Positions 1-64,000 of a stretch of 64,000 bases of DNA are shown here, piece after piece. A program made the translations under genes and the position numbers. The notes below the pieces were generated by a model. That model did not search any database and was not told the DNA's origin. It worked only from the letters and a program-made list of their open reading frames with translations. The DNA is from Tubulanus polymorphus (lineage: Eukaryota > Animalia > Nemertea), in the NCBI RefSeq assembly GCF_964204645.1, contig NC_134031.1:7440001-7504000 (forward strand). Direction: 5' to 3'. Positions within the stretch are counted from its first letter, which is position 1. Each line of letters starts with the position of its first letter.

Positions 1-540
1 ATAAATAATAAACAGTGACATTTGTAAAGTGCCTATTACATTGTGACCAATTTCCACCAGCGCATGGGCCAAGTTGTTACAGGTTGTAAGCTAATTCTAA
101 CAGGAAGGTTTTATGTGCTTGTTTGAAATCATTGAAATTGGGATTGTTCCTGAGGATATCATCCGAAGAGTTCAAGAAGGACACTTTAGTCTTTAGATTG
201 TATGAAACATGAGACAGCCATCTATTGTTATGTTACAATAAAACAGACAACAAGTCCTGGAGATAATGAAGAGCTAATCAATGCAAGCACTTACAAACTG
301 TATACATTATTTTTGGATTTTCGGGAATAAGTGGCACAAAAAATATACTTCTTACATATTTTGGTGTGTTCAAATTCAATGTTAAAATATAAAATTAATA
401 TTTCTAAAAAACCCCAAGATAATAAAGGCATAACAATTGCATTTTGAACAAAATATTCAAGGAATTCAAGCTTTTTGTTCCAAGGAATTCAGCTGGAGAA
501 AGGAATTAATTATGCAGAAATTGCCCATGATTGTTGATAC

Positions 541-16551
<16,011 letters not shown>

Positions 16552-17403
16552 CGAAAGTTGGTTCAGCACTACTTTATACCGTGATCGCGGTGTGAAATAC
16601 ACGTAGCCCGTACTTTTTTCGCTGTCACTTCCTCATTTCTGGGATTTTGTTTCCAGGAAATTATTTCCTGATAGATGGCAGCACATTGCTGCCACGGACC
16701 GGTGAAAGAACGGACTGCGTCGAATCTACTCGGTGCCAATATACCGGTACCTTTAATAATAGTGTTCATTGATCATGTGAAATTGGCATTCCATTTGGAA
16801 TTAATTTTAACATCTCACAAACAATTTTCATTAAACTGTACAGTTTGGCGATTTGATTTAAAGGATTGATCTCGAAAAATGTATGCGGAAAAATGTTCAA
16901 AATCTCAGACCATGGAGTAATCATTTTCTATTTGGGCATAACCCACTGGCCCACCTGGTTATTAACAAAAGATCCCTCTCCACATAGGCAGTCTAAAAAA
17001 CTTTCAGTGCTCTCAGCCTTCACATCATACTGCATAAAACTCTTAAAAACCGCCTGGGACCAGTAATTGTTCAAGTTGGTTAAAATAAATCATTGGGTAA
17101 ATACCTTGGTAACAATCCGGTTTTAAGTCATCATATCCACTGGTTATATTCATCAAACTTTTAAGCAATAGACCCTGTATACCACTTTAAGTTGGAGAAC
17201 CCTTTGGATAGGTGAAAATCGAAATTGAAGATCATCATGAACATATGGCCAGAACTCAAAATTGAAAGAAAAATAGAAACAGTTGGAAGTCATATAGACA
17301 TATTTATTAAAAACATTTCTTCATACACAAAATATCACACACCAATTGAAAGTTACATACTCGCTCACACCCACAATATGACCATAAAAACAAATCGTAC
17401 TTT

Positions 17404-28700: not shown

Positions 28701-31700
28701 GGCCGATTATTCAAAATTCATTTATTCTGACGTATATCCAGTCAGCTAGTTATGTCCGTTTTTACAGGTACGCAAGTATCTCAGAAATAGCAATTTTGAT
28801 AAAATAATTGTGGTTTAATAGCTTAACCATAATAAAGATCGCAGAATGGTTTCATTTCTAATTTCCATATAAATTGGTACCTAAACGTATTTTGTATCCA
28901 CAAACAATTGAAAATATACATGTTTATATATATGCATATGTAACTTGATGAACTATAACTTAATGAATGATTTCAATCTTTTCATTCATTTTAGCATTTG
29001 TTGGATGGGAATGTAAAAATAAGTACCAGATAAAGAACGCAATGGGACAGCAGGTCTATTTCGCGGCGGAAGGTATTTTCAGACCAGTGGTTTTATAAAT
29101 TTTCATTTACGTTCAATAGTGAAAACAAAGATAATTTAAGCAAACCTAGTCCGTTCAATATCCATAAATCAGGAGGAACAAATGAATTTCTTATATTAGT
29201 ACGTATGCAGTTCTTTGATGGTTTTACACAGAGTGATAGTGTTTCATGTTGCATTTCTATTTCATCAGAATCCGATGCCTTTCAAAGACAATGTTGCGGT
29301 CCTCAGAGAGGCTTCACAATGCACATAACTGACAATATGAATCAGGTATGATATATAAAGCCTGTAGTTGCAGCTGCGTTCTTGTGTGGGCATTCAATTT
29401 ACGCTTTTAGTGTTCATTTATAGACGTGAGAAACAGGGAATAGCTGCTGTGCATTGAGAAAATCATTTTATTGCCCTGAATTTTCATGAAAGCGTTGAAG
29501 ATGATGAGGGACATTGAAAAATTAGGAAGTCGGGAAATTAAGACGGGTGGCTGCTTAATTAATTGACGGAAGAAGTTCTTTGAACTATGTGCACACGCCC
29601 TTGCTTAAAAAACTATGTTCTTTCAGAATGTGTTGGTGTCTGTTTCTACAGCGGAGTTGGAACTGCAGCGGCAAAAGCTGCGGCAATAATTTACTGAATG
29701 ACTTTTTTTTCTTTGAATTCCATGTTTTTGAAGGCATTGAAGTATATTCGCTGCAGCAATATCAGAACCGATCAAAAATCGGCAATTGGCCGCGGCAATC
29801 AAAATTGCTTCCAACATGCCTGTTCTATTTGTATCGATTCGGTCTTTGATTGCTTCGGAAATTACTACGATTCGCAATGAAAATGGCGATGAAAGTGGGT
29901 TCAAAGTGGCTGTGAATTCGGATCAGCAACCCTGTAATGAACAATGACTTGATACAGCACGATTTAGCCAGAAGAAACAAATCCACAATTGAATATTTCA
30001 ATGGTGTCGCCAAATTCTATTGTATCAATGACCAGCACGTGTGACAATCCACGCACTTTCGCCAAATGGAGTCACTAAATTGTCTCTGTGGATGATTTAG
30101 CACTTTTCTAAGTCAAATTACGAAATCATTTAGACTTAAATTAGGGTAAACAACCATTGAGCCACTGCACAAATGTGTGCCTGGCTGGTAGGAAGAAGCA
30201 CAAATTCATCAAATATCAAACTAGTTTCTTTCATTTATTTTCAGGAAGTGATACGAATAGAAAGGCCATTTAAATGCTGCGCTGGTGTAAACTGTTGTGC
30301 AGGTGCTGAATGTTGTGCAATGGAAATCACTATTGAGTCGCCACCCGGCACTGTTGTTGGATTTGTTCAACAGGAGTAAGTTTTCAGCGATTCTATAAAC
30401 GAAATGAAAGAAAAGCGTTAAGCCTCATAAAAACCCAGTTTTGCTGCAAATTACGGCTCAATGTAAAACACTTCAGGTGACTTTGTGATCTATGTGCTGG
30501 AATGCCTATTATGGCAGCATCAATACTTACAAAAGGGTATCATAGATCATGTGGGTCAGATCATGAGTTCTATTGTTAGATCCAGTTCTCAAGCAACTGC
30601 ATTTCGCTGTTTAATAACAACTCATCAGTGATGCTGGTATCAATCTGTAGTCGTATCAAAAATGATTTCTGCAATTAGATATTAGTATATAAGTACATGT
30701 ATATGAGTTAAGACATTTTCCAGGCTCTTAAGATTCGTAGGTCTTCAGTTAGTAGATAGGCTATTGAACTAAGATGTCTTAGAACGGTCTTGAATCTAAG
30801 CCATGACTGTGCACCTGGACCTACAGCTGTAGGGTGAACTCTTGAGTTAAAATTTGTTCATTTTCAATTAGTTAACTCTGAGTAAAATCTTAACATTGAA
30901 CTGTGGAACTGGGCCCTGGCTATTGATTGAAATTTAAGCTGAAATCTTCAAAACTTAGGAGCTAATTAGAACCCCTCAGTACATCCTCTTAGATCTGCCT
31001 TCGAATGCAAACATTAGCCGAAATATGATGTATCTGTTTTGTATATTCATTAGATGTAGTTGTCTAGAACCTCGCTATAGCGTCATGAATGCCAGTCATG
31101 ATCGGGTGCTCGAGATCGTCGGGCCCGTCTGTGTGTGCCAGGGACCATGCTGTGGTGACGTTGAATTCGCAGTAAGTTTTTCTCCGCTTCTGATAATGAC
31201 GTATGTCAGCTTAAGTGAACAACCAGACCCTTACATTTTTACGAAAAAAAACATGTCCAGCTAACAACATCAATCAAATCAATCAGGTTTATGAGAAATC
31301 CCGATTTCATATCACGTTGACATTAGTTGTCATAGGGGGCCATGATAAAGGGTACGTAAAAGACGTCTTGACGAAATTTCAAAATTCCGACCCACAGAAT
31401 GTCCAAATAGTACTAAGCCCCCTCTATTTCTCCTCTTATTCGAAGTAGAAGAAATTGGCCATGTGACACTAAATGATTTGTTCTAGCTTACAGAAATTAA
31501 GCATGAAGATGAAGGATGTCCACATCCAAACAACCCCCTCCCCTTATCCACAAGTTTGAACTCACTGACTAAACCAAAATCTCAGGGAGATTTTTTCAAC
31601 ATTATTTTGCATTTGAATTTGACAAACTTAATCGGTTTTCAGCATCAATAATTGCTGGTGTCGCCATGTTCAGGGGCGGATTTAGGTTGTGCTTTCAGGG

Positions 31701-45546: not shown

Positions 45547-46550
45547 GACTGGAACTGGGTAACTGGATGACTGGACAACTGCTCGACTGGATGTTCGGGT
45601 GACTATTGGACTGGATGTCCGGATCACTGGATGACTGGCCGACTGGGTAAAATAACCATCATCCCTGTCTCCATTATGACCACATGCACCGTGTTCAGCA
45701 TCGGCACAATCATCTCCATCACCTCCAGCATCATTATCATCATCACCGTCGTCTCCACCATCCGCACCATCACCTCCAGCATCACAAACATCACCATCAT
45801 CTCTATCACCAGCATCACCTTCATCACTACCATCGTCCCCACTGTTCCACTATACGCACCAACACATTTTCCACCATCACCAATCTCCATTATCACCACA
45901 ATTGCCTTCTCTAGCATCACCATAACTAACTTCACCATCATCATTATCTACACATTCACCCTTCTCCGAGATCATCATCATCCCCCACCATCACCATCAT
46001 CACTTACTTTGCCATCACGTCCATCAACTTCTCCAGCATCGATGACAACATCTTCGCCATTGCAACGACTAAAAGATGTGACAGTGAAATAACGGGGATC
46101 GAAACCTGGTAGAAAGCAAGCATGCTAACTAGTAGACCAATAGAACTAGTCCACTTGGCCAGTGGTTATACAGCTTGTCCTATGTGCGTAACACCATCAC
46201 CACGATCAGCTCCGGCATCACCACCACCTTCTCCATCTCACCATCACCACTACTGCCACCATCACCTTCTCCAGTATCGCCATCACCAGCGTCACCGCCA
46301 TCTCCACCAGCACCATCACCATCTTCACCACCATCTCCATCATTACTATCACCACTATCATGACTACCATCTCAATCTGCCCCATTACCACGATTTCTCG
46401 CTTCATCTCTCCTCATGATGATCAATTCTATCAACACCACCACCATCTCCGCAATCATCCCCATCATCCTCGTAATCTTCTCCGGTCATCTAGTCACATA
46501 GACGACCAGTTGTACAGTCATCCAGTCACTCGGTCACCCAGTAATCCAGC
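45547..46550. repeat. (CAY)n low-complexity tract flanked by inverted GACTGGAT-type repeats
   Basis: Degenerate CAT/CAC trinucleotide array at ~45655-46470. The ACTGGATGACTGG-rich left arm is inverted at ~46480-46550. Confidence 0.7.
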
Positions 46551-46769
46551 CAACCAATCAGCTGCGCATATACTCTGTAGATAGTTGATATGAATGAATA
46601 TGTGATTCGTCCTGGAACGACTTAACCGTAATCTACACGTGGGTCATACTTTTAATTTAATCTTTAAATGTAACTATACATGTTGCCTGAGTATATTAAA
46701 TCTTTACATAAGATTTACTATTAACAAAACTATACTATTTAAAAATCGTAACTTTATGCCTTAGTCAAG

Positions 46770-47468: not shown

Positions 47469-48118
47469 AATTGGAAAAATAACCGAGACTTACCTGGAAG
47501 TTGAAGGTTGTTTCTAATTCTGTCGAACTGCTGACCAATGGAGAGGTTACATGAGATACGCATGCGTAGATCCGACAGTCAATGTTCAACTTGCGAAATT
47601 TATCACAAAGTTACAATGGTGAGGTTAACTGGGTGAGGTTAAAATAAGGGAGTGCATGTAACCTCTCCATTGGTCAGCAGTTAGACAGAATTAGAAACAA
47701 CCTTCAACTTCCAGGTAAGTCTCGGTTATTTTTCCAATTCTATCTAACTGCTGACGTCATTACGAGGTTCCATGAGATGTTCAAAGTTGTGATAAATGAG
47801 TAAACCATAAATTAAAAACAACTATAACGCAAATCTAAAATTTACCAAAACATAACAGCATATATTTGCTTCAAATTTCAGCAACCCAATCTCAGGGTTT
47901 CATAACAAAACATATTTACAGCTCAGGCGAATAAAGCAAAATGTTCGCCTAAAAAACCACCAACAACTTATTCACACTAACTGATTTGCAAAAACCACAA
48001 AATCCAATCTGCCAAAACCAAGCAGTAAGTTATCTAACAAATAACTACTCAAACTCAATGATTTTTAACAATCTTTCACCACTGCATAAAACAGATTTGT
48101 ATACACGAATATTCCAAT

Positions 48119-49044
48119 TCAAATTACATTGAAATTTGATTCATCAGCTACAGGTTTCCTGTAATATTTTCTAAACACTGATTGATTTGACCATCCTGCC
48201 GTCTTCAATATAGATTGTATAGGCGTATTATTTCTTTCTGCCGCCGTAGTTGCCGCTGACCTAGTACTGTGAGGCGTAAAAATTGTCATGTCAACTCCTG
48301 CCCTTGTAAGCATTACTCTTATCCACCTTGACAATGTATCTCTACTTATAGGTCCATGTGATTTCACATATGAAATAAAAAATTTTGTTGTATCACCACG
48401 CAATTTTTCTGTTCGATTAAGGTAAACTTTACAATAGTTCACAATACAAAGACGTCTGTCTGGTACATAGGCTTTTAATGTTATCTCGGCCTGATGGAAA
48501 CCTGGCCTGGACTGTTTTAACAAATCACCAAACCGAATTTTTAACTTGTTTGTGGTAAGCGTTATATTTCTCAAGTCGATCAGATATAGAGACTGTCCTC
48601 TCGTTGACCAGTTAACAGCGCCAGTAATAAAACAAACTTTAATGTGAGATCTTTTAGCGACAAACTAACTGCCGGAGACAGGCCTTTCAGGAAATTTAAT
48701 ACTGGTTCCACCGACCAAATAACCCTATTTCTGGGTAAAGCTGGCCTTAAATTAAATATACCTCTCATGAATCGGCTAACTATGGGTACCTGACCAATAG
48801 GAGTTTTATCTAGATACAAAAAGGTAGAAAGCGCTGATCTCGCTGTATTAATGGCACTGTAACTTAGGCCTTTAGAATACAACTCAGATAAGAAATCTAA
48901 TACATTATTTACACTTCCCTCGTAGGGATCAGCATTCCTCCGAGCACAAAAACCGAGCCATTTGCGAATTTGCGTTGAGTATTGATCACGTGAAGACTCT
49001 CGCCACGATGCCGTGATAATGTCTCTAACTTCCTGAGAAAACAC
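48119..49044 (-). pseudogene. DIRS tyrosine recombinase
   Basis: SAINTARSALS, LTGQR (catalytic Arg), FTPHSTRSA (HxxR), AGWS, FRKYY (catalytic Tyr). One frameshift near 48580-48600. Confidence 0.93.
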
Positions 49045-50963
49045 TCCGTCTGTTGTTGTACGCCCGATATCCTCGCCGCGAAAAGATTCATCTTCGGTAG
49101 CTCGCTCATCTGTCTGGACGGATGCGTAAGAAGAGTGCTGTGGACTCTGGAGGATAGGAGAATAGGATAATCAATTAGCATGTTTACACATTTAGAAAAC
49201 CAATATTGTGTAGTCCAAACTGGAGCCACAATGATTGCCTGAGCACTTTCTAGCTGCTTGGATTTTTTTGTAGCGTCTTGCCCACCAAACAGAAGGGTGG
49301 AAACGCATAGACGAACTCTTCATTACACGGTACAGAGAATGCATCAACTGCTTCTGCCTGTGGATCCGGTTTCCAAGAGAAAAACCTTGGAACCTTGTGA
49401 TTATTTCGGGATGCAAAAAGATCAATAGCTGGCTCACCCCAAATTTGACACAACTTTCTAAACACTATGTCATTCAGGCCCCATTCAGTGTTATCATGGT
49501 AAGTACGACTCATAGCGTCTGCCTCAGTGTTTAGGGCTCCTGGCAGATAAGCAGCTGTCAACCATAAACCTCTAGCCTTGCACCAAAGCCAAGTTTCCCT
49601 AGCTATAGCATTACATTTTTCCTTTCTGCCGCCCATATTATTTAAGTAGGCGACCGTGACTTGATTATCAATTCTAATCAAGATATGAGTATCTGTTTCC
49701 GTTTTACACAAAGCTTGTAGGGTGAAAAGGGCAGCTTTCATCTCAAGTTGGTTTATATGCAAAGCTGCTTCCCAGCTAGACCGATTTCCACCCGTCTTAA
49801 GATTTCCTCGTGTTCCTCCCCACCCTATGCCACTAGCGTCAGAAGTGAGGAAAATTTCTGCTGGGGGCCTGGAGATTGGGTGGCTAACTTTCATTACATT
49901 TTGAGTCCACCACTGCAGATCCTCTCTGCACTCTTGATTGAGTTTCATTTTTGCGTTATAATTTCCAGCAGAATTTTTCAGCTCTCTTAAGATTGTCACA
50001 CCTTCTATAGTATAGTTTGCCATACTCAACGGCCTGAAAACTAGCCACCATCGTACCCACTAGAACTGCTAAGTCCTGTATCTTAATAGACTCTTTCTTG
50101 AGGGCATTGCTGGCAAGTTTCAAAATTTTTTCCCTTCTTTCTTGAGTGAGGGATATAGTCATTTTTATAGAATCAAAAACCACGCCAGCAAATGTAACCC
50201 TTTGAGCAGGGTCCATCATTGATTTTACAGGATGAGTAATGAAACCTGCGCAATCAGAAACCTCATGGGTATCCCTGACAGTCTTTCTGCACAGTTGTAA
50301 GGTCTGAGCGACCATAAAACAGTCATCAATCCAGGTAACCAATTGATGCTTCCTCAATTGAGAGAGAATCACCTTGACAATTTTAGTGAACAACCTCGGA
50401 GCTGACGTTAGTCCGTTCGGCATGGCATTGTAGGAATAGTATTTATCTCTCCACCTGAACTTGAAATATTTTCTAAATTGGTCTGCAACAGGAATACATT
50501 AATACGCATCTTTCCAATCAATAGTGGCCATATAACATTTAGGAGTAATCAAGTTAATGGCAGAATCTAGGGTGTCCATCTTAAAATGATGATATACAAT
50601 GACCTTATTAAGTTCTGTAAGATCTAAGATAACTCTCAAAGAACCATCTTTTTTATCTCGAGTAAATATGTTGGATACAAATTGGTCTCGTTCTTTTTTC
50701 GACTCTTGAATGACACATTTCTGGAGCATTTTCTCTACTTCCAAATCTATCAAATCTATCTTGTGTGACATGGTGACATCGAAACAGTATGGTTTAGGTT
50801 CTCTAAACTGGTTGGATACATTCTCAAATTCAATTTCGATGCCCCTAACCAACGACAGGATGTGTCGATCAGACGTTAGAGTTTTCAAAAAATCCAAAAA
50901 CTGAGCAATTCTGCCAGCTTTAAAATTTTTTACATCTGACTGAGCTTTAGCCAAGATGGACAC
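48909..50963 (-). pseudogene. DIRS reverse transcriptase / RNase H / Dam-like methyltransferase
   Basis: RT: RVILDL, DWKDAY, MPNGLTSAPRLFTK, WIDD. RNase H: SDASGIGWGG, HINQLE, IDNQ, NTEADAMSR. MTase: DLFASRNN..YAFPPF. Contains stops and frameshifts. Confidence 0.92.
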
Positions 50964-51010
50964 CTTATATTCATCCCACTCTAGATCAAAACTAGTTACC
51001 TGCCTGTTAG

Positions 51011-52058
51011 CTACTTGTTTCTTTCGGCCTTCTTTTTGGTGCCCTGGTTGCTTTGGTATGACCTCACTCTGTTGCCGCGGCCTCTCTGGTACTGATGGTA
51101 TTGTTGGTTGGAGGATTGATGACTGGAGTACTGTTGGCGGGAGCGTTGGTATTGGTAATGGTACGCGCCGCCCCCTCGCTTCGCTAAAAAATGAGGTCTC
51201 ATTTTATAATTCTGTATTTTAGAGTCACGTTGAGAATACTCTTTGTTGAATATGGCGCCAACTTTAGAGGGGTCATTGAGCTCTTTGACCTTATTTGCCA
51301 AGTCAACTCCAAATAAAACTTCAGAGGACTCTTTAACACTCTTACTGGCACAAATCGAACGATATTTTGGGTTTATGTGAGGTCTAAGTTTGTAGCGCCT
51401 TTGCTCTGCCAACGAGTGTATGGCTGCGCATGAAAGCGCAAACACATCCATCGTCATTTTAACGGCAAGTTTCAGATCATCTTGCTCCTTATTACTGAAA
51501 GCTCGATAAAATTCATCAGCTAAATATACGCCAGCATAGGCGGCTTTCGCCATTTTTGTGCCCATTTTTTGCAATTTAACATCATGGCTTCTACATTCTG
51601 ACGATATCGAAGACCAGATTTCTGGATTGATTGCGGGAGACCCCACAGCGATATTTTCGGTCAGACTAAACTTTGCAGGGATATTTACCTGGGCCGTTTC
51701 GCTGGAGGTTCGCCCTGAATAATAGCGCACATTTTTTCTAACTTAGAGTCAATAAGACTGCCCACTTTAGATAGAATCATAGCCTCAATTCCATCAAATT
51801 CATGTGAATTTTCATCATGAATTTCAAGCGCCGGTGAGGGATTGCCCCCATTACCACGGTTAGAAGGCTTGTTTTTATCCAACTTTCTGGTACGGGATCT
51901 GTCTTACTAATTTTAGCGACTGAGGCACACTCCGCGCTCGACTTATTAGCCGAGTCACCATGATTTTGAGGAAATTGTGAAAGAACACTTACTTCGTCAT
52001 TCACTGCATTTTTCTTCCATTTCTTCCATTCTTCCATTTCTTTGGCCATGATCGGCAC
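51011..52058 (-). pseudogene. DIRS gag-like ORF1 (frameshifted)
   Basis: PAINPEIWSSI..DVKLQKM..QRRYKLRPHINPKYRSIC..LFGVDLANKVKEL, typical of DIRS ORF1. Split across three frames. Confidence 0.75.
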
Positions 52059-52373
52059 CGGTAAAATTCAAAATGGCGGAGCGGTTCCGACACGCGAACA
52101 GTGAACACCAGAAAACAAAATCCAATCGCATCCACCAACAAAAAATTTTGTAACACAATGTCAAACGCCCAGCGTTGCTTAGATGGCCTAACAAGACGAT
52201 TGCGCCTTATAAGTTAGGTTTTGACACCGATAAACGAAAATTCGATCCCTTCAATCCGAATAATAGAACGACAAAGCACTGAACTTCGCCGGATCAAGCA
52301 TGCAATTGACTGTCGGATCTACGCATGCGTATCTCATGGAACCTCGTAATGACGTCAGCAGTTAGATAGAATT

Positions 52374-53131
52374 CGACATCCCCTGGGCTAGCAGAAAGAA
52401 TGGTTGTTTGAGTGGCACTAGCCCTTGAAGATGTATCCACAGAAGCGTGGCCGTCTATCCCTTTCAGGCCTCGATAACTGAGAAACCTGGGGAAATGATT
52501 TCGGATTTCCTGCGGAAAGGGGAGATGGTACCTTGTAAAGTGTTTCAGCTTAAAGCCTGTAATGATCGCATGGCATTAGCATCCAACTTTAACATCCAAT
52601 TAGATATTTTTGTATATCACTCCATATTTCCGGATCCAGGTAGGCGTCCTGGGGAGAGACGACTCGACTCCATTTATCCAACGGGTTTGAGGCAAAATGG
52701 TATGTATGAGATGGACAGATCAATATATCGTTAGTGTAAATCCAAATATCTGCTTGACGATGTCGTTAAAACGGGTGTTTCTCTCGCCTTCTAAGTTCCA
52801 AACAGAGATAAGAGCCTTGTTATCGACCAATGTTTCGACTCTCCGGTGTTTCGACTGGCCAACTAATTTCCCGTTGAGAATTCGCAAGCCCTTCAGTTTC
52901 CTTTAGCTGTTGTCTCCTGGTAGCCAGTAATCTGTTCAAGGGTACGTGACATGTCCTTCTGTCAGTGGTACCATGCCGTATCCTGACAGGGAAGCATCTG
53001 TAGCCAATTGAAAAGAAACGTGCTTTTCCACTCTCCATTTTACAAAACCTTGCCAATCCTCGAGAACCTCCAATGCAACACGCTTAAAGTTACCATCCAC
53101 CGAAGTAATATGGAAAGTGGGCTTTCAGATC
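52374..53131 (-). pseudogene. Older degenerate tyrosine-recombinase retroelement, RNase H/MTase half
   Basis: Minus strand reads LEDWQGFVKWRVEKHVSFQLATDASLSGYG, KETEGLAN, VDNKALISVWN, IDLSISYIP..SNPLDKWSR, LDANAMRS..LKHFTRY. Contiguous with 46770-47468 once the DIRS1 element is removed. Confidence 0.72.
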
Positions 53132-53188
53132 AGAGTACGAGAGTACGAGACACCACTCATCACCACAAGTAATTTTTTTTCCTTATAA

Positions 53189-56100
53189 ATGGGGGAGAAT
53201 GAACATCAGCCAGAAAACAATAATGCTAATAAAAATCAATATTATTGCCCATATTGTAAAAAATACATCGATAAATCTAATAAATCTTAACATGAAAAAT
53301 CTTCAAATCATATAAAAAATGTTATAGATTTTGAAACTCCAGAAAATTCCAATGAAAGAAAAGAACGATTAGAAAATATGAATGTGGATGAAATAAAATG
53401 TGAAGTTTGTGATGAATTTATAACAAAAAGGAATTATATTAGATTAATAGAATAATATAATAAATTATAATATCTCGAAACAGAAAAACACCGTCAAAAT
53501 TTGAGAAATAATGTTTTAGGAATAGATAATTTTGATGATAAAACTCAACAAGTAAAAAAACCAACTTCAAAAACTAAATCCATTTCAAATAAACCTTACA
53601 TGGAAAATGTTAGAAATTATATTGATTCACTAGAAATAAGAGATACAATTGAAATATTAGAAACATTACGTAGTAAAATTGGTCCTGCAGCTATTATATT
53701 TAGATTTTTTAAAGGTACAACAATAGAAGATTATAGTAAATTTAATGAAATGATAGAAAAAATACTAGATTTGATAACAGATGTTGAATATCCAAAAATT
53801 AGTATCTCTGGGAAAGTAAGTTTTTTAAAGTCAGAAGATAAAATGGATTATGATATTCAAACACTCTCTGAAGAAATAATTTCAAAAACACAAATAAAAG
53901 AGAAGTTAGAAAAAATATTTAATGAATTTAAACGTCATATTGAAGAAAGATATTTTGAGGGTTCTGGCTTAACATTGAATGAAATTATATTTTTAGATTT
54001 AAATGTTTATAATACAAAAAGAAATAAAACATCAAAAAGTAATAAAATGTTTAAAAATGATTCAAACTTTACAACAGAAAAGGAGTATATTAAAGCATCA
54101 TCTTATATTAAATTACCATTTACAACAAAAGCAGTAATAAATATTCAAAATGAAGATAATAAATGTTTTCTATGGCCAATTATTAGTTGCTTACATCCAA
54201 CACAGGAAAATGTTTGTAGAATAACAGATTACCGGAAATATGAAACATTATATAAAATTGATCAATATCCAGTAACTATAAAAATGATTCCTAAAATAGA
54301 AAAAGTTAATAATTTAAAAATAAATGTATTCGAATTAATGCAATTACCAAAGACAAAAGGTGAAAATATTAAAGATTATACATTGGAAGCTTTATATTTA
54401 ACAGAATATTATGATGATGAAAATGCTATAGATTTGTTATATTACAAAAAAGATGAAAATGAACATTATATGTGGTTAAAACAAATTGATTTATTCTTTA
54501 GAACAGAAAGTGATCATCATCATAAAATTTATCTATGTAGAAAATGTTTATCTAAATTTATGACTGTGAATACATTATTAAAACATAAAGAATTATGTGA
54601 TAATAAAGATTTTTGTAAATTAATAATGCCAACAGAAAAGATTATAAATTGAAATTTACTAATCATAAATTCAAAAATATTGTTCCATTTGTAATTTATG
54701 GGGATTTTGAATCGTTGAATAAAGAATTAACTGATCAAGATAGAAAAGAAATATATAACAAAAAGCAATTATTAAAATCAATGGATAAAGGAAATGAATT
54801 AAACGAAGACACAACACAAGACCCGCCAATTATAAATACAATTAAAAAAGTTCATCAAAGAGCTGCTGCTTATGGAATTTACATCAAATCAAATTATCCC
54901 GAATTATATGAAAGTCAATATATTTCTTTTAGAGGTGAAGATGTAGTTAATGATTTTTGTGACAAAATGATTGAATTAGAAAGTGATTTTGCAAAATTAT
55001 TAAACAAAAATAAAAGAATAGTTATGACAAAAGAAGATGAAATTGATTTTAATTATGCTACTCATTGTTGTTATTGTGAAAAACGTTTTTATTCATTTGA
55101 TAAAAAAGTTAGAGATCATAATCATTTAAATTCAAAATATCGTGGAGCTGCACATGAAGATTGTAATTTACAAGCTAAGAAAGTTAATTTTGTACCAATA
55201 TTATTTCATAATTTATCAGGCTATGATACCCATCTATTTATAAAACAATTATCGGGAAAATTGGGCGCAATTAATCAAGAAATAGAAGAATATAATGCTA
55301 TGAATGGTGTAAATGTAAGAAAATATGATTTTAAACTATTAGCTAAAATATCTGAAAATTATATTTCATTTCAATTTGGTTGCATTAGATTTTTAGATTC
55401 TTATAGATTTCGAGCAAGTTCATTAGATAATTTAGCAAAAAGTTTAGTTGATAATGATTTTGTTATAACTCGATATTATTATCCAAATGAACAAGATTTT
55501 AAATTATTGAGATATAAAGGTGCAATGCCTTATTCATTTTATAAAACACACAATGATTTTAATGTAACAGAATTATTAAAAGATCAATTTTATGATCAAT
55601 TAAAAGAGGAGTACGTGAAAGATGAAGTGTTTAATAGAACATTAAATATTTGGAACCATTTTAAGATGAAAAATCATGGTGAATTAGTTGATTTATATTT
55701 AAAATCAGATGTTATGATATTGGCTGACATATTTGAAAAATTTAGAGAAGTTAATTTGAATCATTTTAATGCTGATCCTTGTTATTGCTACTCTAGTCCT
55801 GGTTTAAGCTGGCAATGTGGTTTAAAATACACAAATGTAGAATTAGATTTATTAAAAGAACCAGACATGGTTTTATTATTTGAAAAATCAATTAGAGGTG
55901 GAATTAGTGGTGTTATGGGAGATAGGTATTTTAAAGCAAATGATGAATACAAATTATTATATATTGACGCCAATAATCTATATGGTTGGGCAATGATGCA
56001 ACCTCAACCATATAAAAATTTTATATTGACAGAAGTTGAAAATGATGATAAAACTGATTGGGAAAGCGCAATTGTGAGTTTAAAAGATGAAGCACCAATT

Positions 56101-58228
56101 GGTTATTTCTTTGTAGTTGATTTAGAATATCCTGAAAATATAAAGTTTAAAACAAGAAACTTACCTTATTGCCCAGAACATTTAACTGTAGATGATAGTT
56201 ATTTAACTGAATACCAGAAGAAAATAAAACCGAAAGATCATGTTTTTACAGAAAAATTAATACTTACTCAAAATAATAAATACAATTATATTGTTCATTA
56301 TAGGATGTTAAAATTTTATCTAAAACAAGGAATGAAATTAAAGAAAGTACATAGATATATTGAATTTAATTAATCGAAGTGGTTAGAAAAATATATAGAT
56401 TTCAATACTCAACAGAGATTCATATCAAAAACATATTTTGAAAAGATTTCTTCAAATTAATGAATAATAGTTTTAATGGTAAAACATGTGAAAATATTAG
56501 AAATAGAAATGATATTGATTTAGTAAATAATTCTGAAAGATTAAGACATTTACAATCAAGTCCTAGACATTTAGGAAATAAAAGATTTGAAGATTATTTA
56601 ACAGCAGTTAAATTAAAAAGATCGTCAATGAAATTTAAAAAAACCTATATTCATTGGTTCAACTGTTTTAGAAGTATCAAAATTATTAATGTATGATCTT
56701 TATTATAATGTTTTACAACCACTTTTTGGGGAAAAACATATAGAAATCTTATATTTTGATTCTGTTACAGCTGACACCCCAATATTATTAAAATGTAATG
56801 ATAAAATATTGATAAGAAGAATTTCAGAAATAATTCCAAAGGAAAATGAACGTTATATTTCATATGGTGAAAAAGAATTAATATAAATAAATGGTTTAAT
56901 GAATGTTTGGACAAGAAATGGATGGAAAAAATTAAAGAATATTATTAGGCATAAAACAAATCAGAAAATCTATAGAGTTAGAACTAAATTAGGGTTTGTA
57001 GATGTTACAGAAGATCATAGTTTAATTAAACGAAATGGTGATGAAATTAAACCAACTGATATAAAAATTGGAGATGAATTATTACATAAAAGATTTTACC
57101 CAAGAATGAATCATATGTCATTCGACGAAATTATTGATAATATTTATAATATGGAACCTGAAACATTAGAAGAAAAAGAATATTTTATCAAAGGATTTTT
57201 TATGGGAGATGGTTCAGCAGGTGTGTATAATTATGTTTGGGGTAATAAATATTGTTGGTATTTATGCAATCAAGACTTAAAATTATTAGAAAGAATTAAG
57301 GAATTCTGTGAAGAAGTTTATTCACATAAAACATTTAGAATCAAGGCATGTTATGAAATCATCAGCAGTTTATAGAATACTTGTAAATAATCCTAAAGAT
57401 TTTGCTATAAAATATAATGATGAATTCTATATTCATGCAATAGTGAAAAGTAATACTTCAACAAAAGAAAAGATAGTTCCAGATTATGTATTATATCCAG
57501 ATTATTTATTAAGTATAAAAAGATAACCTTTGCGCAAAAAGGAAAAGTTGCTATATCAGGATTAAATGTATTATGCAATTCATTAGGTTTTAATATGAAT
57601 ATTGGATTGATTAAATCTAAACCAAATTGCTTTAATTTAAACCATGTAGAAAATGAGTTAACAGAAGAAGTTAAATATTTATTTGAAATATGTAACCCAA
57701 CAGATTATGTTTATGATTTATCAACTGAAGATGGCACATTTAACTGTGGATTTCCATTAATAGCCAAAAATACGGATGCGTACATACTAAAAATCAAGAC
57801 AAATGACATAACAAAAGACTTAAAAACATTAAAACATCATTTTGATTTTAGCAATTATCCCAAAGATCATGAACTATTTAGCAATGATAATAAAAAGATT
57901 CCTGGAAAGTTTAAAGATGAATTAGGGGGTGATGAAATGATTGAATTTGTTGGGATAAGAAGTAAAATGTATAGTTACAGAACAAAAGATCATGAAGCTA
58001 AAAAGTTAAAAGGAATAACAAAACATGTGGTTGATAAACATATAGAATTTCAAGATTATATAAAGTGTTTATATAACTCAATTGTAATGAAACACAAAAT
58101 GAATTGTTTAAGATCAGAAGATCACGAGATGTACATTAATGAAGTTGAAAAAAACTAGTTTGAATCCATTTGATGATAAAAGGCATATTTTAGATGATGG
58201 TATAAAAACATTACCTTATGGTTATTAA
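53189..58228 (+). pseudogene. Protein-primed family B DNA polymerase (pPolB) containing an intein
   Basis: N-terminal C2H2 fingers, OTU-like INIQNEDNKCFLW..EHY region, ExoI VIYGDFES, EndoVII-like insert, ExoII FHNLSGYD, ExoIII YLKSDV, motif A IDANNLYGWAM, motif B KLMNNSFNGKT, motif C LYFD|TDAY split by the intein, PGKFKDE, KLKGI, C-terminal PFDDKRHILDDGIKTLPYGY. Several stops and frameshifts (53288, ~54650, 56371, ~56445, ~56640, ~58150). Confidence 0.95.
56761..57771 (+). mobile_element. Intein with LAGLIDADG (DOD) homing endonuclease in pPolB motif C
   Basis: Block A SVTADTPILL (Ser1), block B DVTEDHSL (TxxH), block C FIKGFFMGDGSAG, block F YVYDLSTEDGTFNCG, block G IAKN followed by Thr+1. 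Removal restores YFDTDAY. Span is 1011 bp. Confidence 0.93.
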
Positions 58229-59541
58229 AATGGATCAATATCATCAAACTCGAAATCACTATTGGTTTCTTCTTTTTCATTTAATTGTTCTTGTATAATT
58301 TGTTTAGGTTCTTCCATTTCATTTTTCTCATTTAAATAAAGTTCTATCTTGTACCACATTTCATCTCGCTCTCTTTGTTTCTTTTTGTTCGTTAATTCAT
58401 CAAATGGAATTATAATATCGATGTTTAAATAATTTACAATCTTATTTAAAAAGAATTCATAATTAATTGAATCTGTTATTTTATTATCCACATAATATTT
58501 TAATATGTTTGTGAACGTTTCTTTTATATTTCTTATATCTTCTTTTGTTAATTTAGGTTTTTTATAATAATCGTTAAATAATAAATATAAATACATTTTC
58601 TTTTCTTGTGTGTTAAATGTTGACGGAATAATTGTTTTTATTATATCTTTTTTAGTTATTTCGCCATTTTTATTTTCTATTTTTTTCATTTTTTCAAGCC
58701 ATTGCTTATATTCTGGTGTATGATCTTCCGTAGAAAATATTTTAAAAATTTCATCTAGATATTTTAATTTTGGTTCTATAAGAATATTTCTAGTTTTTTC
58801 ATCACCCCATAAATTCTTTTGCCATCCACATTCATTACAAAATATCACAGGACCTTCTTGTCTTAAGTACTCATAAATACATTTTGGGCATTTTTGTCTA
58901 TCATTTCTTAGTAATAGATCTTCATTAAGCTCTTGGTATTTTCTTACGTTTTCTTTATGTTTTATTGTTCTATTACGTAGATTTAAATTACTTGTTGTAA
59001 TAATCAATTTACAATAATATGTTTTTCTTACTAATTCATTATATTGTTTATCTAACTTTTCAACTATTTCTTTATTATCTGGTAACGTTTTCTCATATTT
59101 TATTTCTTCTAATAAACTATTTTTTCTTTCATTGAATTCTGTTTCGAATTTATTAGAAATTTTATCTATATGTACTTTACGAAATTGATGATTCTCCCAA
59201 GCTTCTATATTTTCAGGACTAAATTTCATTCGGCAAGGCTCACAGAAATGATCTTTTATATTATCCTTGTCAAAGAATAAGAAAGGTCTTTTCCAAATAA
59301 CTTCAGGTTCAGGTTCAGCAGAATTACTATTACTTTCGTTACTATCAACATTAACCGTTGCGTTATTAATTTTAGAATTCTCTGAATGTTTTTTAACATA
59401 ATTTCTTGAGAATAATTTATTACATTTTGGGCAGTTTATTTTAGGGGGTTTATAATTTTCATCATGTTTTTTCATATGTCGCGCCATATTACTTTTTCTT
59501 AGAAGTTCACCACAAATTTCGCATGGTATCATCTCATCCAT
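58225..59541 (-). CDS. Zinc-finger protein with C-terminal poxvirus/NCLDV late transcription factor VLTF3-like domain (438 aa, intact)
   Basis: N-terminal C2H2 fingers. Zinc ribbon CPKC..GPVIFCNECG, then KLKYLDEIF and INYEFFLNKIVNYLNI..LTNKKKQRERDEMWYKI, resembling the VLTF3 consensus (YxxxLxK..L..K...D.IWKKI). Its stop overlaps the pPolB stop (TTAA 58225-58228). Confidence 0.68.
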   Translation of the reverse strand: MDEMIPCEICGELLRKSNMARHMKKHDENYKPPKINCPKCNKLFSRNYVKKHSENSKINNATVNVDSNESNSNSAEPEPEVIWKRPFLFFDKDNIKDHFCEPCRMKFSPENIEAWENHQFRKVHIDKISNKFETEFNERKNSLLEEIKYEKTLPDNKEIVEKLDKQYNELVRKTYYCKLIITTSNLNLRNRTIKHKENVRKYQELNEDLLLRNDRQKCPKCIYEYLRQEGPVIFCNECGWQKNLWGDEKTRNILIEPKLKYLDEIFKIFSTEDHTPEYKQWLEKMKKIENKNGEITKKDIIKTIIPSTFNTQEKKMYLYLLFNDYYKKPKLTKEDIRNIKETFTNILKYYVDNKITDSINYEFFLNKIVNYLNIDIIIPFDELTNKKKQRERDEMWYKIELYLNEKNEMEEPKQIIQEQLNEKEETNSDFEFDDIDPF

Positions 59542-59610
59542 TTATTTAGGAAAAATTTTATTAAAATTAATTTTTAGTGATGAGCGGTAATTTTTTTTAT
59601 GTTATAAATA

Positions 59611-60369
59611 ATGGTAGAATTAAAAGAATACAGAATATTTGTTGATTCTAGAAAACGTACAAATTATAAATCACATAATTTATTAGTACAATTAGATAGA
59701 GAATTTAAGAATTGTGTTGATTTGAAATTAGTTAATATAAGTTTATGTAATTCTTTTTATAATGTATCGGATAAAAGTCTAGAACATTTAATTTTTTCAA
59801 TCTTTTACAAAAAAAGGAATAAATGGTTTTTTATATATTTAAAACCAGGATTATATAATTTAGATACATTAGCACAAGAAATTAATAGAAAAGCTCGAGC
59901 TTAATTAGGAAGTGATTCCGGATTTAGTATTAGATTTTCAAAAAGTGATAGTTCTAATAAAATAAAGATTAGGTTAGCTCATGACGAACAATTTAAATTT
60001 ACAGTAAGAAAACCTTTAGGTAAACTGTTAGGAATTAACCCAGATATTGTTACAGTAAACGCAGAAGGTAGATCAAATTTAATACCTTACACACATTTCT
60101 GTATTTATTGTAATTTAATTGATCCTACAAAAACATTTGAAGCAACTAAAGATACAACATGTAATTCTAGTATATTAAGTATTTTACCATTGAAGAACGT
60201 TAAACAATTTGGAACGCAAATAAATTATAATTTAGCTGAATGTGATTTTAAACCTTGTATTCCACATTTCAATAATTTTAAATTAGAAATAAGAAATCAC
60301 AATGGATATCTAATTGATTTAAATAACTTTCCTGTGATATATGAATTAGTTATAAGATGTAGAGAGTAA
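59611..60369 (+). pseudogene. Minor capsid (penton)-like protein, single internal stop at 59902
   Basis: Read-through gives 252 codons: IFVDSRKR..FKNC..L.NSFYNV..KPGLYNL..EIN..LGKLLGI..CIYCNLI..ILSILP..FG..FKLEIRNHNGYLIDLNN.PV.YEL, a single jelly-roll penton pattern. Confidence 0.7.
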
Positions 60370-60385
60370 TTTTTTCATTATATAA

Positions 60386-60745
60386 ATGAATATAACTGTT
60401 GGACCGAGTATATGTTTTGGGTTTGATTGTAAACGTGAGAAAGAAATGAAATTTAACATTAATGATGTAATTATACATATTAAAAATATTGCATTTTCTA
60501 ATGAAACATCATTTGAGTATGAAACAACAATAGATAAAGAAACTTTAAATGTAGAAAAGATTACTAATTTAATTAGAGAATCTTTAAGATTTTATGAATT
60601 AGATGAAGATTTTATCATCGATGATATTAAAAAAATAATAATTGAAATATATACAAATGAAACTAGTAATGAAATAAATGTTGAATTAATCATAAATAAG
60701 ATAACTAACTATTTTGAAGATAGTAATTTTTTGATTAATAAATGA
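60386..60745 (+). CDS. Hypothetical Polinton protein (119 aa)
   Basis: Intact ORF preceded by the conserved TAATTTTTT..TAAATG motif. Confidence 0.6.
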   Translation: MNITVGPSICFGFDCKREKEMKFNINDVIIHIKNIAFSNETSFEYETTIDKETLNVEKITNLIRESLRFYELDEDFIIDDIKKIIIEIYTNETSNEINVELIINKITNYFEDSNFLINK

Positions 60746-60973
60746 GTGATAATAAGTGGATAATAACTGGTTTATATAATGGAGCCTTACTATCAGTTGG
60801 AACTGTTGGTTATTCAATGGTATTAAATAAGAAGTATTTAAAATGTGAAGTGTTAATGTTGATAGATTTGATATCAATGATATTTTAAAATTAACATTAG
60901 CAGTTACTTTATCTAATTTAACTATTGATTATTTGGAAAAACAAAAATATATTCCTCCCATATAAATGCGTAA
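60742..60973 (+). pseudogene. Small Polinton protein (frameshifted)
   Basis: Motif-preceded ATG at 60742. MSDNKWITGLYNGALLSVGTVGYSMVL / ..DRFDINDILKLTLAVTLSNLTIDYLEKQKYIP resembles small conserved animal-Polinton ORFs. Confidence 0.55.
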
Positions 60974-60989
60974 TTATTTTACTAAATAA

Positions 60990-61415
60990 ATGGCTTCTGC
61001 AATTATAACTATTATAGGATCGGCAATTGTTATCGCTTTAGCATTTACTGGTGGTGGTTATTTATTTAAGCATATTGATAAAAATAGTTCATTAGGAGAA
61101 CAAAGAAGACATAACTTAGCATTAGAAAAATACAATAAAGCAGCAGAAGAATATAGAGAAAAGAGGCAAAACTATATGGATTATATTAACAAGGAATTAT
61201 ATGATCAGAAGATTTCACATAGAGATTTTCAATCAGTTAATGATGCAATGAGTTTATATAACGCGGTAAGCAATAAAGAAAAATTACATCTATACAAACC
61301 TAAATTATCAGATTATTATACCCCAAGTAAAGAACAACAGAAATATGAAATAATTTGGATTTTAGGCGGAACAGTTATTGTTATATTTGTAGCATATAAA
61401 TTTACTAATAAGTAA
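60990..61415 (+). CDS. Conserved Polinton protein with N- and C-terminal hydrophobic helices and central coiled coil (141 aa)
   Basis: MASAIITIIGSAIVIALAFTGGGYLF..EQRRHNLALEK..DYIN..DAM..Y, a pattern recurrent in invertebrate Polintons. Motif-preceded ATG. Confidence 0.7.
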   Translation: MASAIITIIGSAIVIALAFTGGGYLFKHIDKNSSLGEQRRHNLALEKYNKAAEEYREKRQNYMDYINKELYDQKISHRDFQSVNDAMSLYNAVSNKEKLHLYKPKLSDYYTPSKEQQKYEIIWILGGTVIVIFVAYKFTNK

Positions 61416-61430
61416 TTTTTTTCTAAATAA

Positions 61431-61884
61431 ATGGATGATAAAGTTGATAATATTGATATTATTCCTCATGATATAAATAAAACTAAATTAAAAATATATT
61501 TAGAAAAACAAATATTAGAATTTGAAAAAGATTTAAAAGTTATTAAAAATTCATATTATTTAAAAGAAAAAATATTTAAAATCTAAAATTATATATTATT
61601 TGATTATAATTGGTTCGGTTACAATTAGTTCTGTAATAACATTTCTAGCAATATTTTCGCCATTAACACCTTTAGCTATATCAATTGGCGTATGAGGATT
61701 AAGTTCAAGTGTTTTAACTGCTATAAGTTCAAAATTAAATATAAAAAGTAATAAAGAAAAAATTAAAACTAATATAAAAGAAATTAATAAATTAATGAAT
61801 ACACTAGATTATATAATACGTTTAAATGGCCATATAACAGTTGAAGAACAAGATAAATTATTAAAAGAATCAATAAATTATTAA
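61431..61884 (+). pseudogene. Two-TM coiled-coil Polinton protein (disrupted)
   Basis: Motif-preceded ATG. One frameshift and one TGA. Hydrophobic IIYYLIIIGSVTISSVITFLAIFSPLTPLAISIGV*GLSSSVLTAI. Confidence 0.55.
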
Positions 61885-61899
61885 TTTTTAATTATATAA

Positions 61900-63306
61900 A
61901 TGGTAGATAGTTTTCCAAAAGCTTTCCAATATAATAAATCAATTAAATATAATATTCCAGCAATAGATTTTAATAAAGATATTTCATATAGAAATGAAGT
62001 TTTAAATTCATTAATTGCTTTATATATTTATGTTACTGAAACTAATTATTTTAATGTTAAGATGGGAAATATATTTCATGTGTATACAATTAATTTCAAA
62101 AATTTAAATGAGGCAAAACAATGGTTATTAAAATCTAATATGAAGTATTGGCAGAACCAATTAAATGTTGCTGTTTATTGTGCAACAACAGGATGTGGAA
62201 TTAGTTGGAATGATCATTTAAACAAACCAAGTTTACCATTGATGTTATCACTCTTTAGATTTCATACATACTTTCAAACAATATTAATATTAGATGAATT
62301 AGAATGTCCTTTACCAGGTTCAAAATTTTTTAAAGAATTGAATAATAATATTAATTTTTCTAAGGTTATAAAATATGTAATGAATTTAATATTAATTCAA
62401 ATAAAGATTTTAGAGCCAAAATTGGAACAATGGGTGGATTAGGAATATTATATACTAAAGAATTTGGAAAAATAATGGCAAATTCAGATATAAGAACACT
62501 AAATTGGAATGAATTACCAAAATATTATAATAATATACAACAACAAAACAATAATTGTTGGGTTAATTTCATTTTAGAAAATAGTGAAGGTTTTACTAAA
62601 GCTGGAATACAAAGAATAAATCAATCTATTAGAACTTATTTGATATGTATTTTAGGCGCGCAAGTTGAAACAAGATCACCAATAGTTGGAAATGATAACA
62701 CTTCATTCGATGCGCAGAAACAATTCAAAGTATTATTTGAAGATTTAATTCATAATGATAAAAATAGATCGATTCCAGAAAACATTGTAAGATATCAAAA
62801 TTCTTTAGATAGTATTATTTGAAGATTCAATTCATAATGATAAAAATAGATCGATTCCAGAAAACATTGTAAGATATCAAAATTATTTAGATAAATCTCA
62901 TGTAAGACTAAATTATTGTATAGGCCCTAATCTATTAATTATTTCTAATGATTTAGTATTAAAGATGGGAAATATAATTGGTTATAATAATCTAATTAAA
63001 ACTGCAACAATAAATAATTCATTTGGATTGAATGATATAAATAAAAAGATAATTACTGCTCCCAAATTAATGGAAGGTGAAAAAAATAAAAAACACATTC
63101 AATCAACTGAAGCTAAAACTAAAAATATTAAATTGGATAATGATTCTAAAATAAAAGATTACAATACTACAGAAAATATTAAAACTGATAATATTCAACA
63201 TGAAATAATTAAACTAAATGATGATAATAAATCCCATGAAAATGCTAAATTAGCTTTAACTTTTATAGGAATTGTAATCGGAGGAATATTATATTTTAAA
63301 TTTTAA
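61900..63306 (+). pseudogene. Conserved Polinton protein with C-terminal membrane anchor (disrupted)
   Basis: YWQNQLNVAVYCATTGCGIS..HL, FRFHTYFQ, SEGFTKAGIQRINQSIRTY..CILGAQVETRS, DAQKQF, IGYNN, C-terminal LALTFIGIVIGGILYF. Broken by a frameshift at ~62370 and an 82-bp tandem duplication (62729-62810/62811-62892). Confidence 0.72.
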
Positions 63307-63322
63307 TTTTTTTATTATATAA

Positions 63323-64000
63323 ATGGATGTAGAAATTCCATTGGATCCTTTAGATGAACCTTCTAATTCTAATTTACCTACACTTGAATATATTGATAAA
63401 GCACGTTCAAAGATAAATACTGAAAATGAAGTTACAGAAATAACAAAAAAAGAATTAAAATATGACAATTTAACTGATAAATTCAAACCAATATTAGAAA
63501 AATCTGGATTCAATATAACAAATGAAGGTGTGAATTATTTAGTAAAAGATTTGAAATATTTAAATGGTGATTATTATTGGAATTTGAAAGATGACTATTA
63601 TTTTAAGATTTCTTCTAATTAAAGTCTCGATAAAATAATAACAAAATCAACTTTTATTAAATTAGAACAATCTAGAATTAAGAAAATCAATAATGATGTT
63701 ATAACTGATGTTACAAAAGAAGAGATAACTCTAAATAGATGGGAATTTAATCGAAGAAATGATGATTTTTTGAAGATAATTAATGAAAATTTAGAACCAA
63801 AAACAATTCCTAAAGAAGTTGATAATTCCAAAACTAGTAAAAGTCAAATCAACCGAAGTTCAAACTGAAAAACTTTTACAAAATGGGTTACTTGATGCAA
63901 CAGATCAAGAATTAGAAGATTTAAATATATTTTCTGATGAAGCAATTAGAGAAATTATTAGTATGATTAAATTATTATTAGTTATAGAAATGAAGCTGAT
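63323..64000 (+). pseudogene. Hypothetical Polinton protein (disrupted, truncated by window edge)
   Basis: Motif-preceded ATG. The frame continues past the TAA at 63620. Confidence 0.5.

Follow-up and report, generated by a model that had tools for sequence, protein, structure and literature searches.

Several systems are known in which a small DNA virus depends on a larger one. In Cafeteria, shared promoters are described as deciding whether a virophage is reactivated, with Mavirus using the late promoter of CroV. Polinton-like viruses (PLVs) packaged with entomopoxviruses have been described as well (PMC11296320), and homologues of the poxviral factor VLTF3 have already been published for polintoviruses and PLVs (PMC11131425). 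How animal Polintons are transcribed, and whether any of them needs a helper, is an open question in the field. Here we analyse a stretch of 64,000 nucleotides of the nemertean Tubulanus polymorphus (contig NC_134031.1, positions 7,440,001 to 7,504,000 of the forward strand), called the window below, which from position 53104 to its end consists of a Polinton copy, decaying in the chromosome and belonging to a multi-copy family. A first-pass annotation had seen in it a virophage-like element in which a Mimivirus-type pol-c intein, a VLTF3-like factor and TAAATG late-type promoters together recorded contact with one large DNA virus of this host. The promoter is the strongest of the element's virus-linked signals and carries the helper-virus case. 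Going by it, we find it somewhat probable that this lineage relies for transcription on the RNA polymerase that a co-infecting poxvirus-like virus provides and is thus virophage-like.

Late-type promoter motif in the element and its relatives

The element has nine gene starts, and the ATG of eight of them lies in TAAATG, the motif pointed out in the first-pass annotation, compared to 28 of 437 other ATGs (6.4%; P 2e-9). The gene starts were picked from open reading frames (ORFs) and homology after the motif had been seen, so this test was not blind. The eight are the start of the protein-primed DNA polymerase gene pPolB, whose T-run and TAAATG span 53169..53191 (+), and the starts at 59544 (-), 60383, 60739, 60987, 61428, 61897 and 63320. 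At the ninth start (59611), TAAATA stands five bases before the ATG. All nine have a T-rich run a few bases upstream, and the T at -3 is invariant. Sites that combine T5 with TAAATG number 8 in the element, against a simulated mean of 1.9 (maximum of 6 in 200) and a single site in the 53 kb of flank.

The vaccinia late promoter is described as a T-rich core, a spacer of 5-7 bp and a TAAAT(G/A) initiator (PMC5294985), and slippage at the TAAAT initiator yields 5' poly(A) leaders (PMC6211774). As a predicted promoter, the start architecture of the element matches this arrangement in its T-rich core, its 5-7 bp distance and its TAAAT(G/A). Our literature search, which had most subscription papers and Repbase outside its coverage, found no report of TAAAT promoters in Polintons.

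The motif follows the phylogeny of the polymerase. In a FastTree phylogeny of 125 pPolB rows it marks one clade (support 97), being present in 11 of 11 scoreable rows inside the clade and in 2 of 44 outside it. Fifty-five rows were scoreable, that is, they had at least two genes with half of them motif-bearing, or at least three genes with at most one fifth. On this tree the motif changes 3 times, as opposed to 11.8 times when shuffled. The clade without the window has the motif at 23 of 28 genes. Its motif-bearing rows span 21-38% GC, and AT-rich rows outside the clade lack the motif (L099, 1 of 9 genes; L081, 0 of 9). Relatives that lack the motif can likewise be AT-rich and intron-free. As controls, two loci that we take to be of entomopoxvirus type, given an A2L match and their gene content, have TAAATG at 6 of 13 genes, and 79 viral loci with related inteins, none of them with a pPolB, have it at 82 of 1007. 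Two loci whose pPolBs fall outside the main clade in the FastTree phylogeny also have TAAATG starts throughout: L071 at 2 of 2 genes, and L092, a viral contig of 9 kb that encodes an A32 ATPase and a chromo-integrase, at 7 of 7.

The motif C intein and the VLTF3-like gene

Motif C of pPolB contains a pol-c-type intein with Hint and LAGLIDADG parts (56761..57771, +). It is inserted between YFD and TDA, begins with Ser, ends with Asn and has Thr at +1, and the Mimivirus-type assignment of the first-pass annotation was thereby borne out, the pol-c intein of Mimivirus PolB being described at the equivalent site between YGD and TDS (PMC549080). The TEDH block and the first LAGLIDADG motif are present. 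The second endonuclease motif, found in the inteins of the pPolBs P0002-P0004 and P0215, has been deleted from the window copy, which also has one stop and two frameshifts. Eukaryotic inteins have been placed in fungal and other microbial nuclear genes, in chloroplasts and in four giant-virus families (PMC5784728). So far, the inserts described in pPolB have been nucleases of the HNH and VSR types (PMC10748475; PMC11071308). HNH and similar inserts have been called possible intein invasions (PMC11071308), which is a different observation from a Hint-type intein. No Hint-type intein in a protein-primed polymerase was found in our literature search, outside whose coverage lay survey supplements that possibly list inteins. 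An intein in such a polymerase is notable separately from the promoter.

A search with the N-terminal part of the intein gave 274 matches. The best 120 of these include three pPolBs (P0002-P0004) in which an intact intein occupies this site; all others are PolBs, apart from a few topoisomerases. Five close relatives of the pol-c intein (P0051, P0074, P0086, P0098 and P0115) reside in type II topoisomerases, between D and TDG, a site that resembles the polymerase site. In a tree of 28 inteins (LG+G4), the six from Polintons form one clade (100/100), which is sister to seven PolB inteins (96/80). This tree omits 37 rows of a quick 62-row tree, from which inteins shorter than 300 aa or without a matched end had been excluded, and adds three; the two trees agree. 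A GVMAG giant-virus contig contains a gene identical to one of the sister PolBs, and upstream of it is AAAATTGA, described as a Mimivirus-type early motif. The window intein shares 62% identity with that of P0002, 47-54% with the remaining Polinton inteins and 34-43% with viral PolB inteins, so that a jump from a giant virus would be old. Judging from the tree, the Polinton inteins go back to one old entry from a giant-virus PolB into motif C.

The first-pass annotation had named, as part of the outcome that would speak against it, an intein shared vertically among Polintons with no affinity to nucleocytoplasmic large DNA viruses (NCLDVs). Instead, the giant-virus affinity is clear and the spread is patchy. 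The closest pPolB relatives (67-69% identity) are intein-free. Among 119 new pPolB matches, 3 have an intein, 91 were scored as empty (81 with a clean site) and 25 were unscoreable; of 123 pPolB loci, 95 have an alignment that spans the empty site, with an intein match in none. The same is seen within the species. In reads from another sample (run X5, of which 12% was read), the depth over the intein is 182-314, compared to 329 and 410 beside it, and one contig of the species skips the intein.

The P0215 cluster (P0331-P0344; 15 of 136 members listed, on contigs of up to 1 Mb) is a high-copy Polinton family with intact frames, in which copies with and without the intein are 98-99% identical over about 1,010 residues. 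Seven intein-plus and four intein-minus copies show 11 differences, all of them located between -6 and +44 residues from the insertion site, and there is no plus/minus difference in the about 1,010 residues upstream of it. Such a tract is the pattern expected of homing with co-conversion. We infer that the intein homes between Polinton alleles and that homing has been caught in progress in this family. P0004 is a pPolB of a different type, with no BLAST match to the window pPolB outside motif C and an insert that is presumably VSR-like. An intein belonging to the Polinton clade occupies the equivalent position in it, which implies a jump between Polinton groups. In summary, the intein appears to be a passenger from an older and separate contact, which would attest to past sharing of a cell with a giant virus rather than to a present helper.

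Convergent with pPolB, as in the relative L001, is an open frame of 438 aa (58225..59541, -). It is predicted to encode a distant VLTF3/A2L-like protein with N-terminal zinc fingers, a zinc ribbon and the helical VLTF3 domain. The VLTF3-like factor of the first-pass annotation was confirmed in three ways. Atlas gave Pox_VLTF3 for 29 of 30 matches to the ORF (0.92); a two-row profile run against 1.84 billion proteins gave six matches, two of them with PF04947; and Foldseek with a model of pLDDT 80 returned entomopoxvirus and cowpox A2L first, followed by giant-virus VLTF3s. A direct Pfam scan of the ORF gave no match, a word-based protein search with its C-terminus found nothing, and a Foldseek search of the PDB with the same model gave no match at E 0.001. 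A single-sequence fold (pLDDT 45) was set aside. The gene is accessory and was not seen next to pPolB in every relative. Two unannotated proteins of 281 and 305 aa (P0389 and P0390) make up another VLTF3-like group, which is intermediate between the type of Polintons and that of poxviruses.

A proposed poxvirus-like helper and the alternatives

Transcription by a poxvirus-like helper could work as follows. In an infected cell, the late machinery of the helper would start transcription inside TAAAT, slip and add a 5' poly(A) leader. All genes would have to wait for the late phase of the helper because the motif stands even before pPolB. For copying and packaging, the element would use its own pPolB, capsid proteins and ATPase, while the VLTF3-like protein may bias the late complex of the helper or compete for it. 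The integrase, which is seen in relatives, would insert new copies, and these would then decay. The intein would have entered motif C long ago in a single jump out of the PolB of a giant virus, followed by homing between Polinton alleles with co-conversion of the flanks. Integration by a virion-borne integrase, as in Mavirus, would explain copies in the uninfected germline.

A number of observations weigh against this explanation. No helper virus was found, with no host genome screened for one, and it is the promoter that points to one; no transcript starts were seen, which makes the promoter itself a prediction. A presumed RNA assembly (X7) yielded one record with two short pieces, which we do not count as evidence. 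Coral polintoviruses are described as transcribed, with no helper reported and the promoter type not given (PMC11131425). It is also hard to see how a cytoplasmic polymerase would reach a provirus in the nucleus, and the presence of dozens of copies in the germline calls for an explanation. The motif count of the clade falls to 23 of 32 genes when four single-gene loci without the motif are included, many clade loci have only 2-3 genes, and the tree was made by FastTree only. The viruses with the nearest inteins rarely use TAAATG, which starts 2 of 41 genes in their four best loci and 82 of 1007 when all loci are counted, and the intein-bearing viral families listed in PMC5784728 include no poxvirus.

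The VLTF3-like protein likewise fails to favour a poxviral source. The alignment behind its model held entomopoxvirus A2L and one giant-virus sequence, which weakens the lean towards A2L. Path lengths in the tree are 4.5 to the giant-virus type and 4.6 to the poxviral type, and hhalign (96.6 against 94.5 for a profile of five rows, 95.3 against 96.3 for one of three) makes no choice between poxviruses and giant viruses. In tblastn, the protein matched one A2L of entomopoxvirus type and none of six giant-virus VLTF3 loci. Hence, the gene is real but not diagnostic of a poxviral or giant-virus origin, and it is not clearly poxviral.

Taken together, most of what the first-pass annotation had observed was confirmed, and its interpretation was supported in part. 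Dependence on a cytoplasmic large DNA virus is supported by the promoter match, its conservation across the clade and the intergenic gaps of 15-16 nt, although it is only the promoter that points to such a virus. That the three signals record a single contact in this host was not supported because the intein and the promoter point to different virus groups: the intein is old and apparently derived from a giant virus, the promoter resembles those of poxviruses and the VLTF3-like gene is ambiguous.

Of the other explanations, the one that survives best, although we consider it unlikely, is a helper-independent nuclear virus. Its own VLTF3-like factor, together with the host TATA-binding protein (TBP) and RNA polymerase II (Pol II), would read the T-run and TAAAT, and the likeness to poxviruses would be inherited or convergent. 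The element does encode a transcription-factor homologue in an open frame, five of the nine starts read TATAAATG, and TBP reportedly targets vaccinia late promoters. Furthermore, the high copy number fits unaided transposition, and the genes of coral polintoviruses are expressed (PMC11131425). However, pPolB and the VLTF3-like gene are themselves driven by the motif, so that nothing would be early. A TATA box that touches the ATG would also make Pol II start inside the ORF. The motif is more widespread than the VLTF3-like gene, as in L002, L004 and L005 (partial contigs) pPolB is followed by another gene with no VLTF3-like match. The coding strands contain 4.9 AATAAA per kb, with no depletion, and four intergenic gaps are only 15-16 nt long, which is awkward for Pol II. 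The AATAAA test does not discriminate, because AT-rich loci outside the promoter clade are equally undepleted, and this too counts against the helper explanation. A depletion of TTTTTNT was dropped as a discriminating signal since it is found in all AT-rich groups.

We give considerably less credit to a cytoplasmic polymerase of non-poxviral origin, be it that of the giant-virus lineage that donated the intein, of an unsampled NCLDV or of a plasmid similar to the yeast virus-like elements. The intein is proof that the lineage once met giant viruses, the VLTF3-like protein is as distant from the poxviral as from the giant-virus group, TAAATG starts number up to 5 of 15 in a few viral loci with inteins, and yeast linear plasmids are described as using a TAAAN initiator with slippage (PMC6211774). 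Against this, PolB is preceded by AAAATTGA in the nearest relatives of the intein, where TAAATG starts are few, the known late motifs of Mimivirus and CroV, as described, are different, and the combination of T-core, spacer and TAAATG is the poxviral late form. Finally, it is very improbable that TAAATG is no promoter but a mere stop-start or translation context in an ordinary decayed AT-rich Polinton with a stray intein: TAA and ATG are indeed common at 23% GC, and 28 of the 36 TAAATG sites are not at gene starts, but the TAA is not the stop of the preceding gene, the enrichment at starts is strong, and the motif is kept in clade members at 31-38% GC and absent from AT-rich non-members.

A poxvirus-like helper for this lineage thus remains our preferred explanation. 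We propose its extension more tentatively, as something that may be true but that we would not call probable: the whole invertebrate Polinton clade would consist of poxvirus virophages whose promoters record undiscovered poxvirus-like viruses, and the giant-virus intein would be a resident mobile element of animal genomes that still homes between copies in the chromosomes. If true, the model of endogenous virophages, developed for protists, would come to include animals. A promoter that sorts Polintons by lineage would provide a sequence test for helper dependence, and it would predict where to seek poxvirus-like viruses in hosts that have none on record.

The decayed copy, its surroundings and known systems

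The GC content per kb drops at about 53.1 kb from 29-45% in the flank to 21-27% in the element (23% overall) and stays low to the window end, in accord with the extreme AT content noted in the first-pass annotation. A decayed AT-rich Polinton reaching the window end was thus upheld, whereas its left end had to be moved from 53132 to 53104. The former position is ruled out by two lines of evidence. A total of 486 reads break off at 53104 into loose ends whose sequences are mixed (agreement only 0.35), as expected of many different flanks, and the similarity to L001 begins at the same AAGTAA. The left terminus (53104..53193, +) is probably a terminal inverted repeat of about 60-90 bp (length inferred). 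It starts with AGTA and contains a tandem 8-mer; uniform loose read ends are located behind 53163 and 53193.

The read depth in the element is 84-1135, and about 330-470 across most of pPolB, versus 13 in a single flank bin. Because the element depth is so far above that of the flank, the family would number roughly a few dozen copies in the species, an estimate that depends on a single flank bin, which need not be single-copy. Among 37,495 aligned reads, 901 are at least 99% alike and another 27,534 are 90-99% alike. Most reads depart from the window sequence at several of its breaks, so that this copy would have suffered much of its decay on its own. The small membrane-protein genes (60140-61690) have a depth 2-3 times that of pPolB, and the depth falls about fourfold after 63236. 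These steps suggest shared modules and mosaic family members.

The pPolB gene (53189..58228, +; PF03175, E 1.3e-12; tblastn with the intact relatives P0002 and P0203-P0205) has a core that is 66-69% identical to intact relatives. It is broken by about 5 stops and 6 frameshifts and has no intron-sized gap relative to them, so the scattered lesions and the lack of introns reported earlier were both found. With pPolB broken many times and the intein lacking its second endonuclease motif, the window copy is dead.

Seven genes follow on the + strand beyond the VLTF3-like gene. The first (59611..60369, one stop) is a probable penton, or minor capsid protein. The N-terminal DSR motif that had led to this assignment is present, and the DUF5901 match (E 1.6e-4) is below the cut-off; a weak tblastn match to the viral contig L086 was obtained and no PDB match. 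Next are a 119-aa ORF with no family match (60386..60745), a frameshifted small hydrophobic gene (60742..60962) that by eye resembles an 86-aa ORF beside the integrase in L009, and a membrane-anchored protein of 141 aa (60990..61415) common to the pPolB elements L009 and L034 (tblastn E 6e-18 and 4e-15). The last three genes are all broken: one with a hydrophobic stretch (61431..61884), one of about 440 codons with a C-terminal hydrophobic tail and an 82-bp tandem duplication at 62729-62892 (61900..63306), and one that continues beyond the window (63323..64000). A portal-protein identity for 62364-62819 was dropped because the Atlas leads scored under 0.9. PHROGs gave no useful name for any gene, scans of viral contigs with a piece of the window pPolB and with P0002 found nothing, and a scan of prokaryote genome contigs found only distant pPolBs. 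Within the window there is no major capsid protein, ATPase, protease, integrase or right terminus, and the element runs past the window end. The clade relative L002 encodes an rve integrase downstream of pPolB.

A DIRS-type retrotransposon (47469-52376, -) with a reverse transcriptase, a tyrosine recombinase and inverted terminal repeats lies 730 bp to the left of the Polinton. Two flank genes have kilobase introns, a QSOX sulfhydryl oxidase (exons 469-16632, -) and a phospholipid scramblase (exons 23556-31261, +). A GIY-YIG fragment is found at 5145-5369 and a low-complexity, CAT/CAC-rich tandem tract between short inverted repeats at 45550-46560.

The yeast plasmids pGKL1/2 are, like the element, protein-primed, AT-rich replicons. 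Their TAAAN initiator with slippage is similar, but they are described as having their own RNA polymerase and capping enzyme and an early-type upstream element (PMC6211774), none of which is seen in the window. The Mimivirus pol-c intein (PMC549080) shares with the Polinton inteins the site between YxD and TD, the Ser start, the Asn end, the Thr at +1, the LAGLIDADG endonuclease and a length of about 350 aa in intact relatives. Here, however, the extein is a protein-primed polymerase, the Polinton inteins form a clade of their own that is 34-43% identical to the viral PolB inteins tested, and the window copy is broken. Mavirus and the EMALE virophages of Cafeteria with CroV are likewise chromosomal elements with pPolB and integrase and helper-type late promoters. 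In contrast, the motif of the element is TAAAT(G) and that of CroV is TCTA, the host here is an animal, the helper of the element is hypothetical and its capsid genes would lie beyond the window. The PLVs associated with entomopoxviruses are small integrating dsDNA viruses also proposed to parasitise animal poxviruses, but they come from occlusion bodies and represent strongly diverged lineages, and the words "promoter" and "intein" are absent from the main text (PMC11296320). The element is closest to the Maverick-Polintons or adintoviruses (Polintoviricetes), with which it shares a pPolB with a terminal-protein region, the AGTA terminus, a probable penton, multi-copy chromosomal insertion, an integrase in a clade relative and the VLTF3 homologue that is described for a subgroup of them (PMC11131425). 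Unlike the Polintons described so far, it has a predicted promoter of poxviral late type before each of its genes, and motif C is interrupted by a Hint/LAGLIDADG intein.

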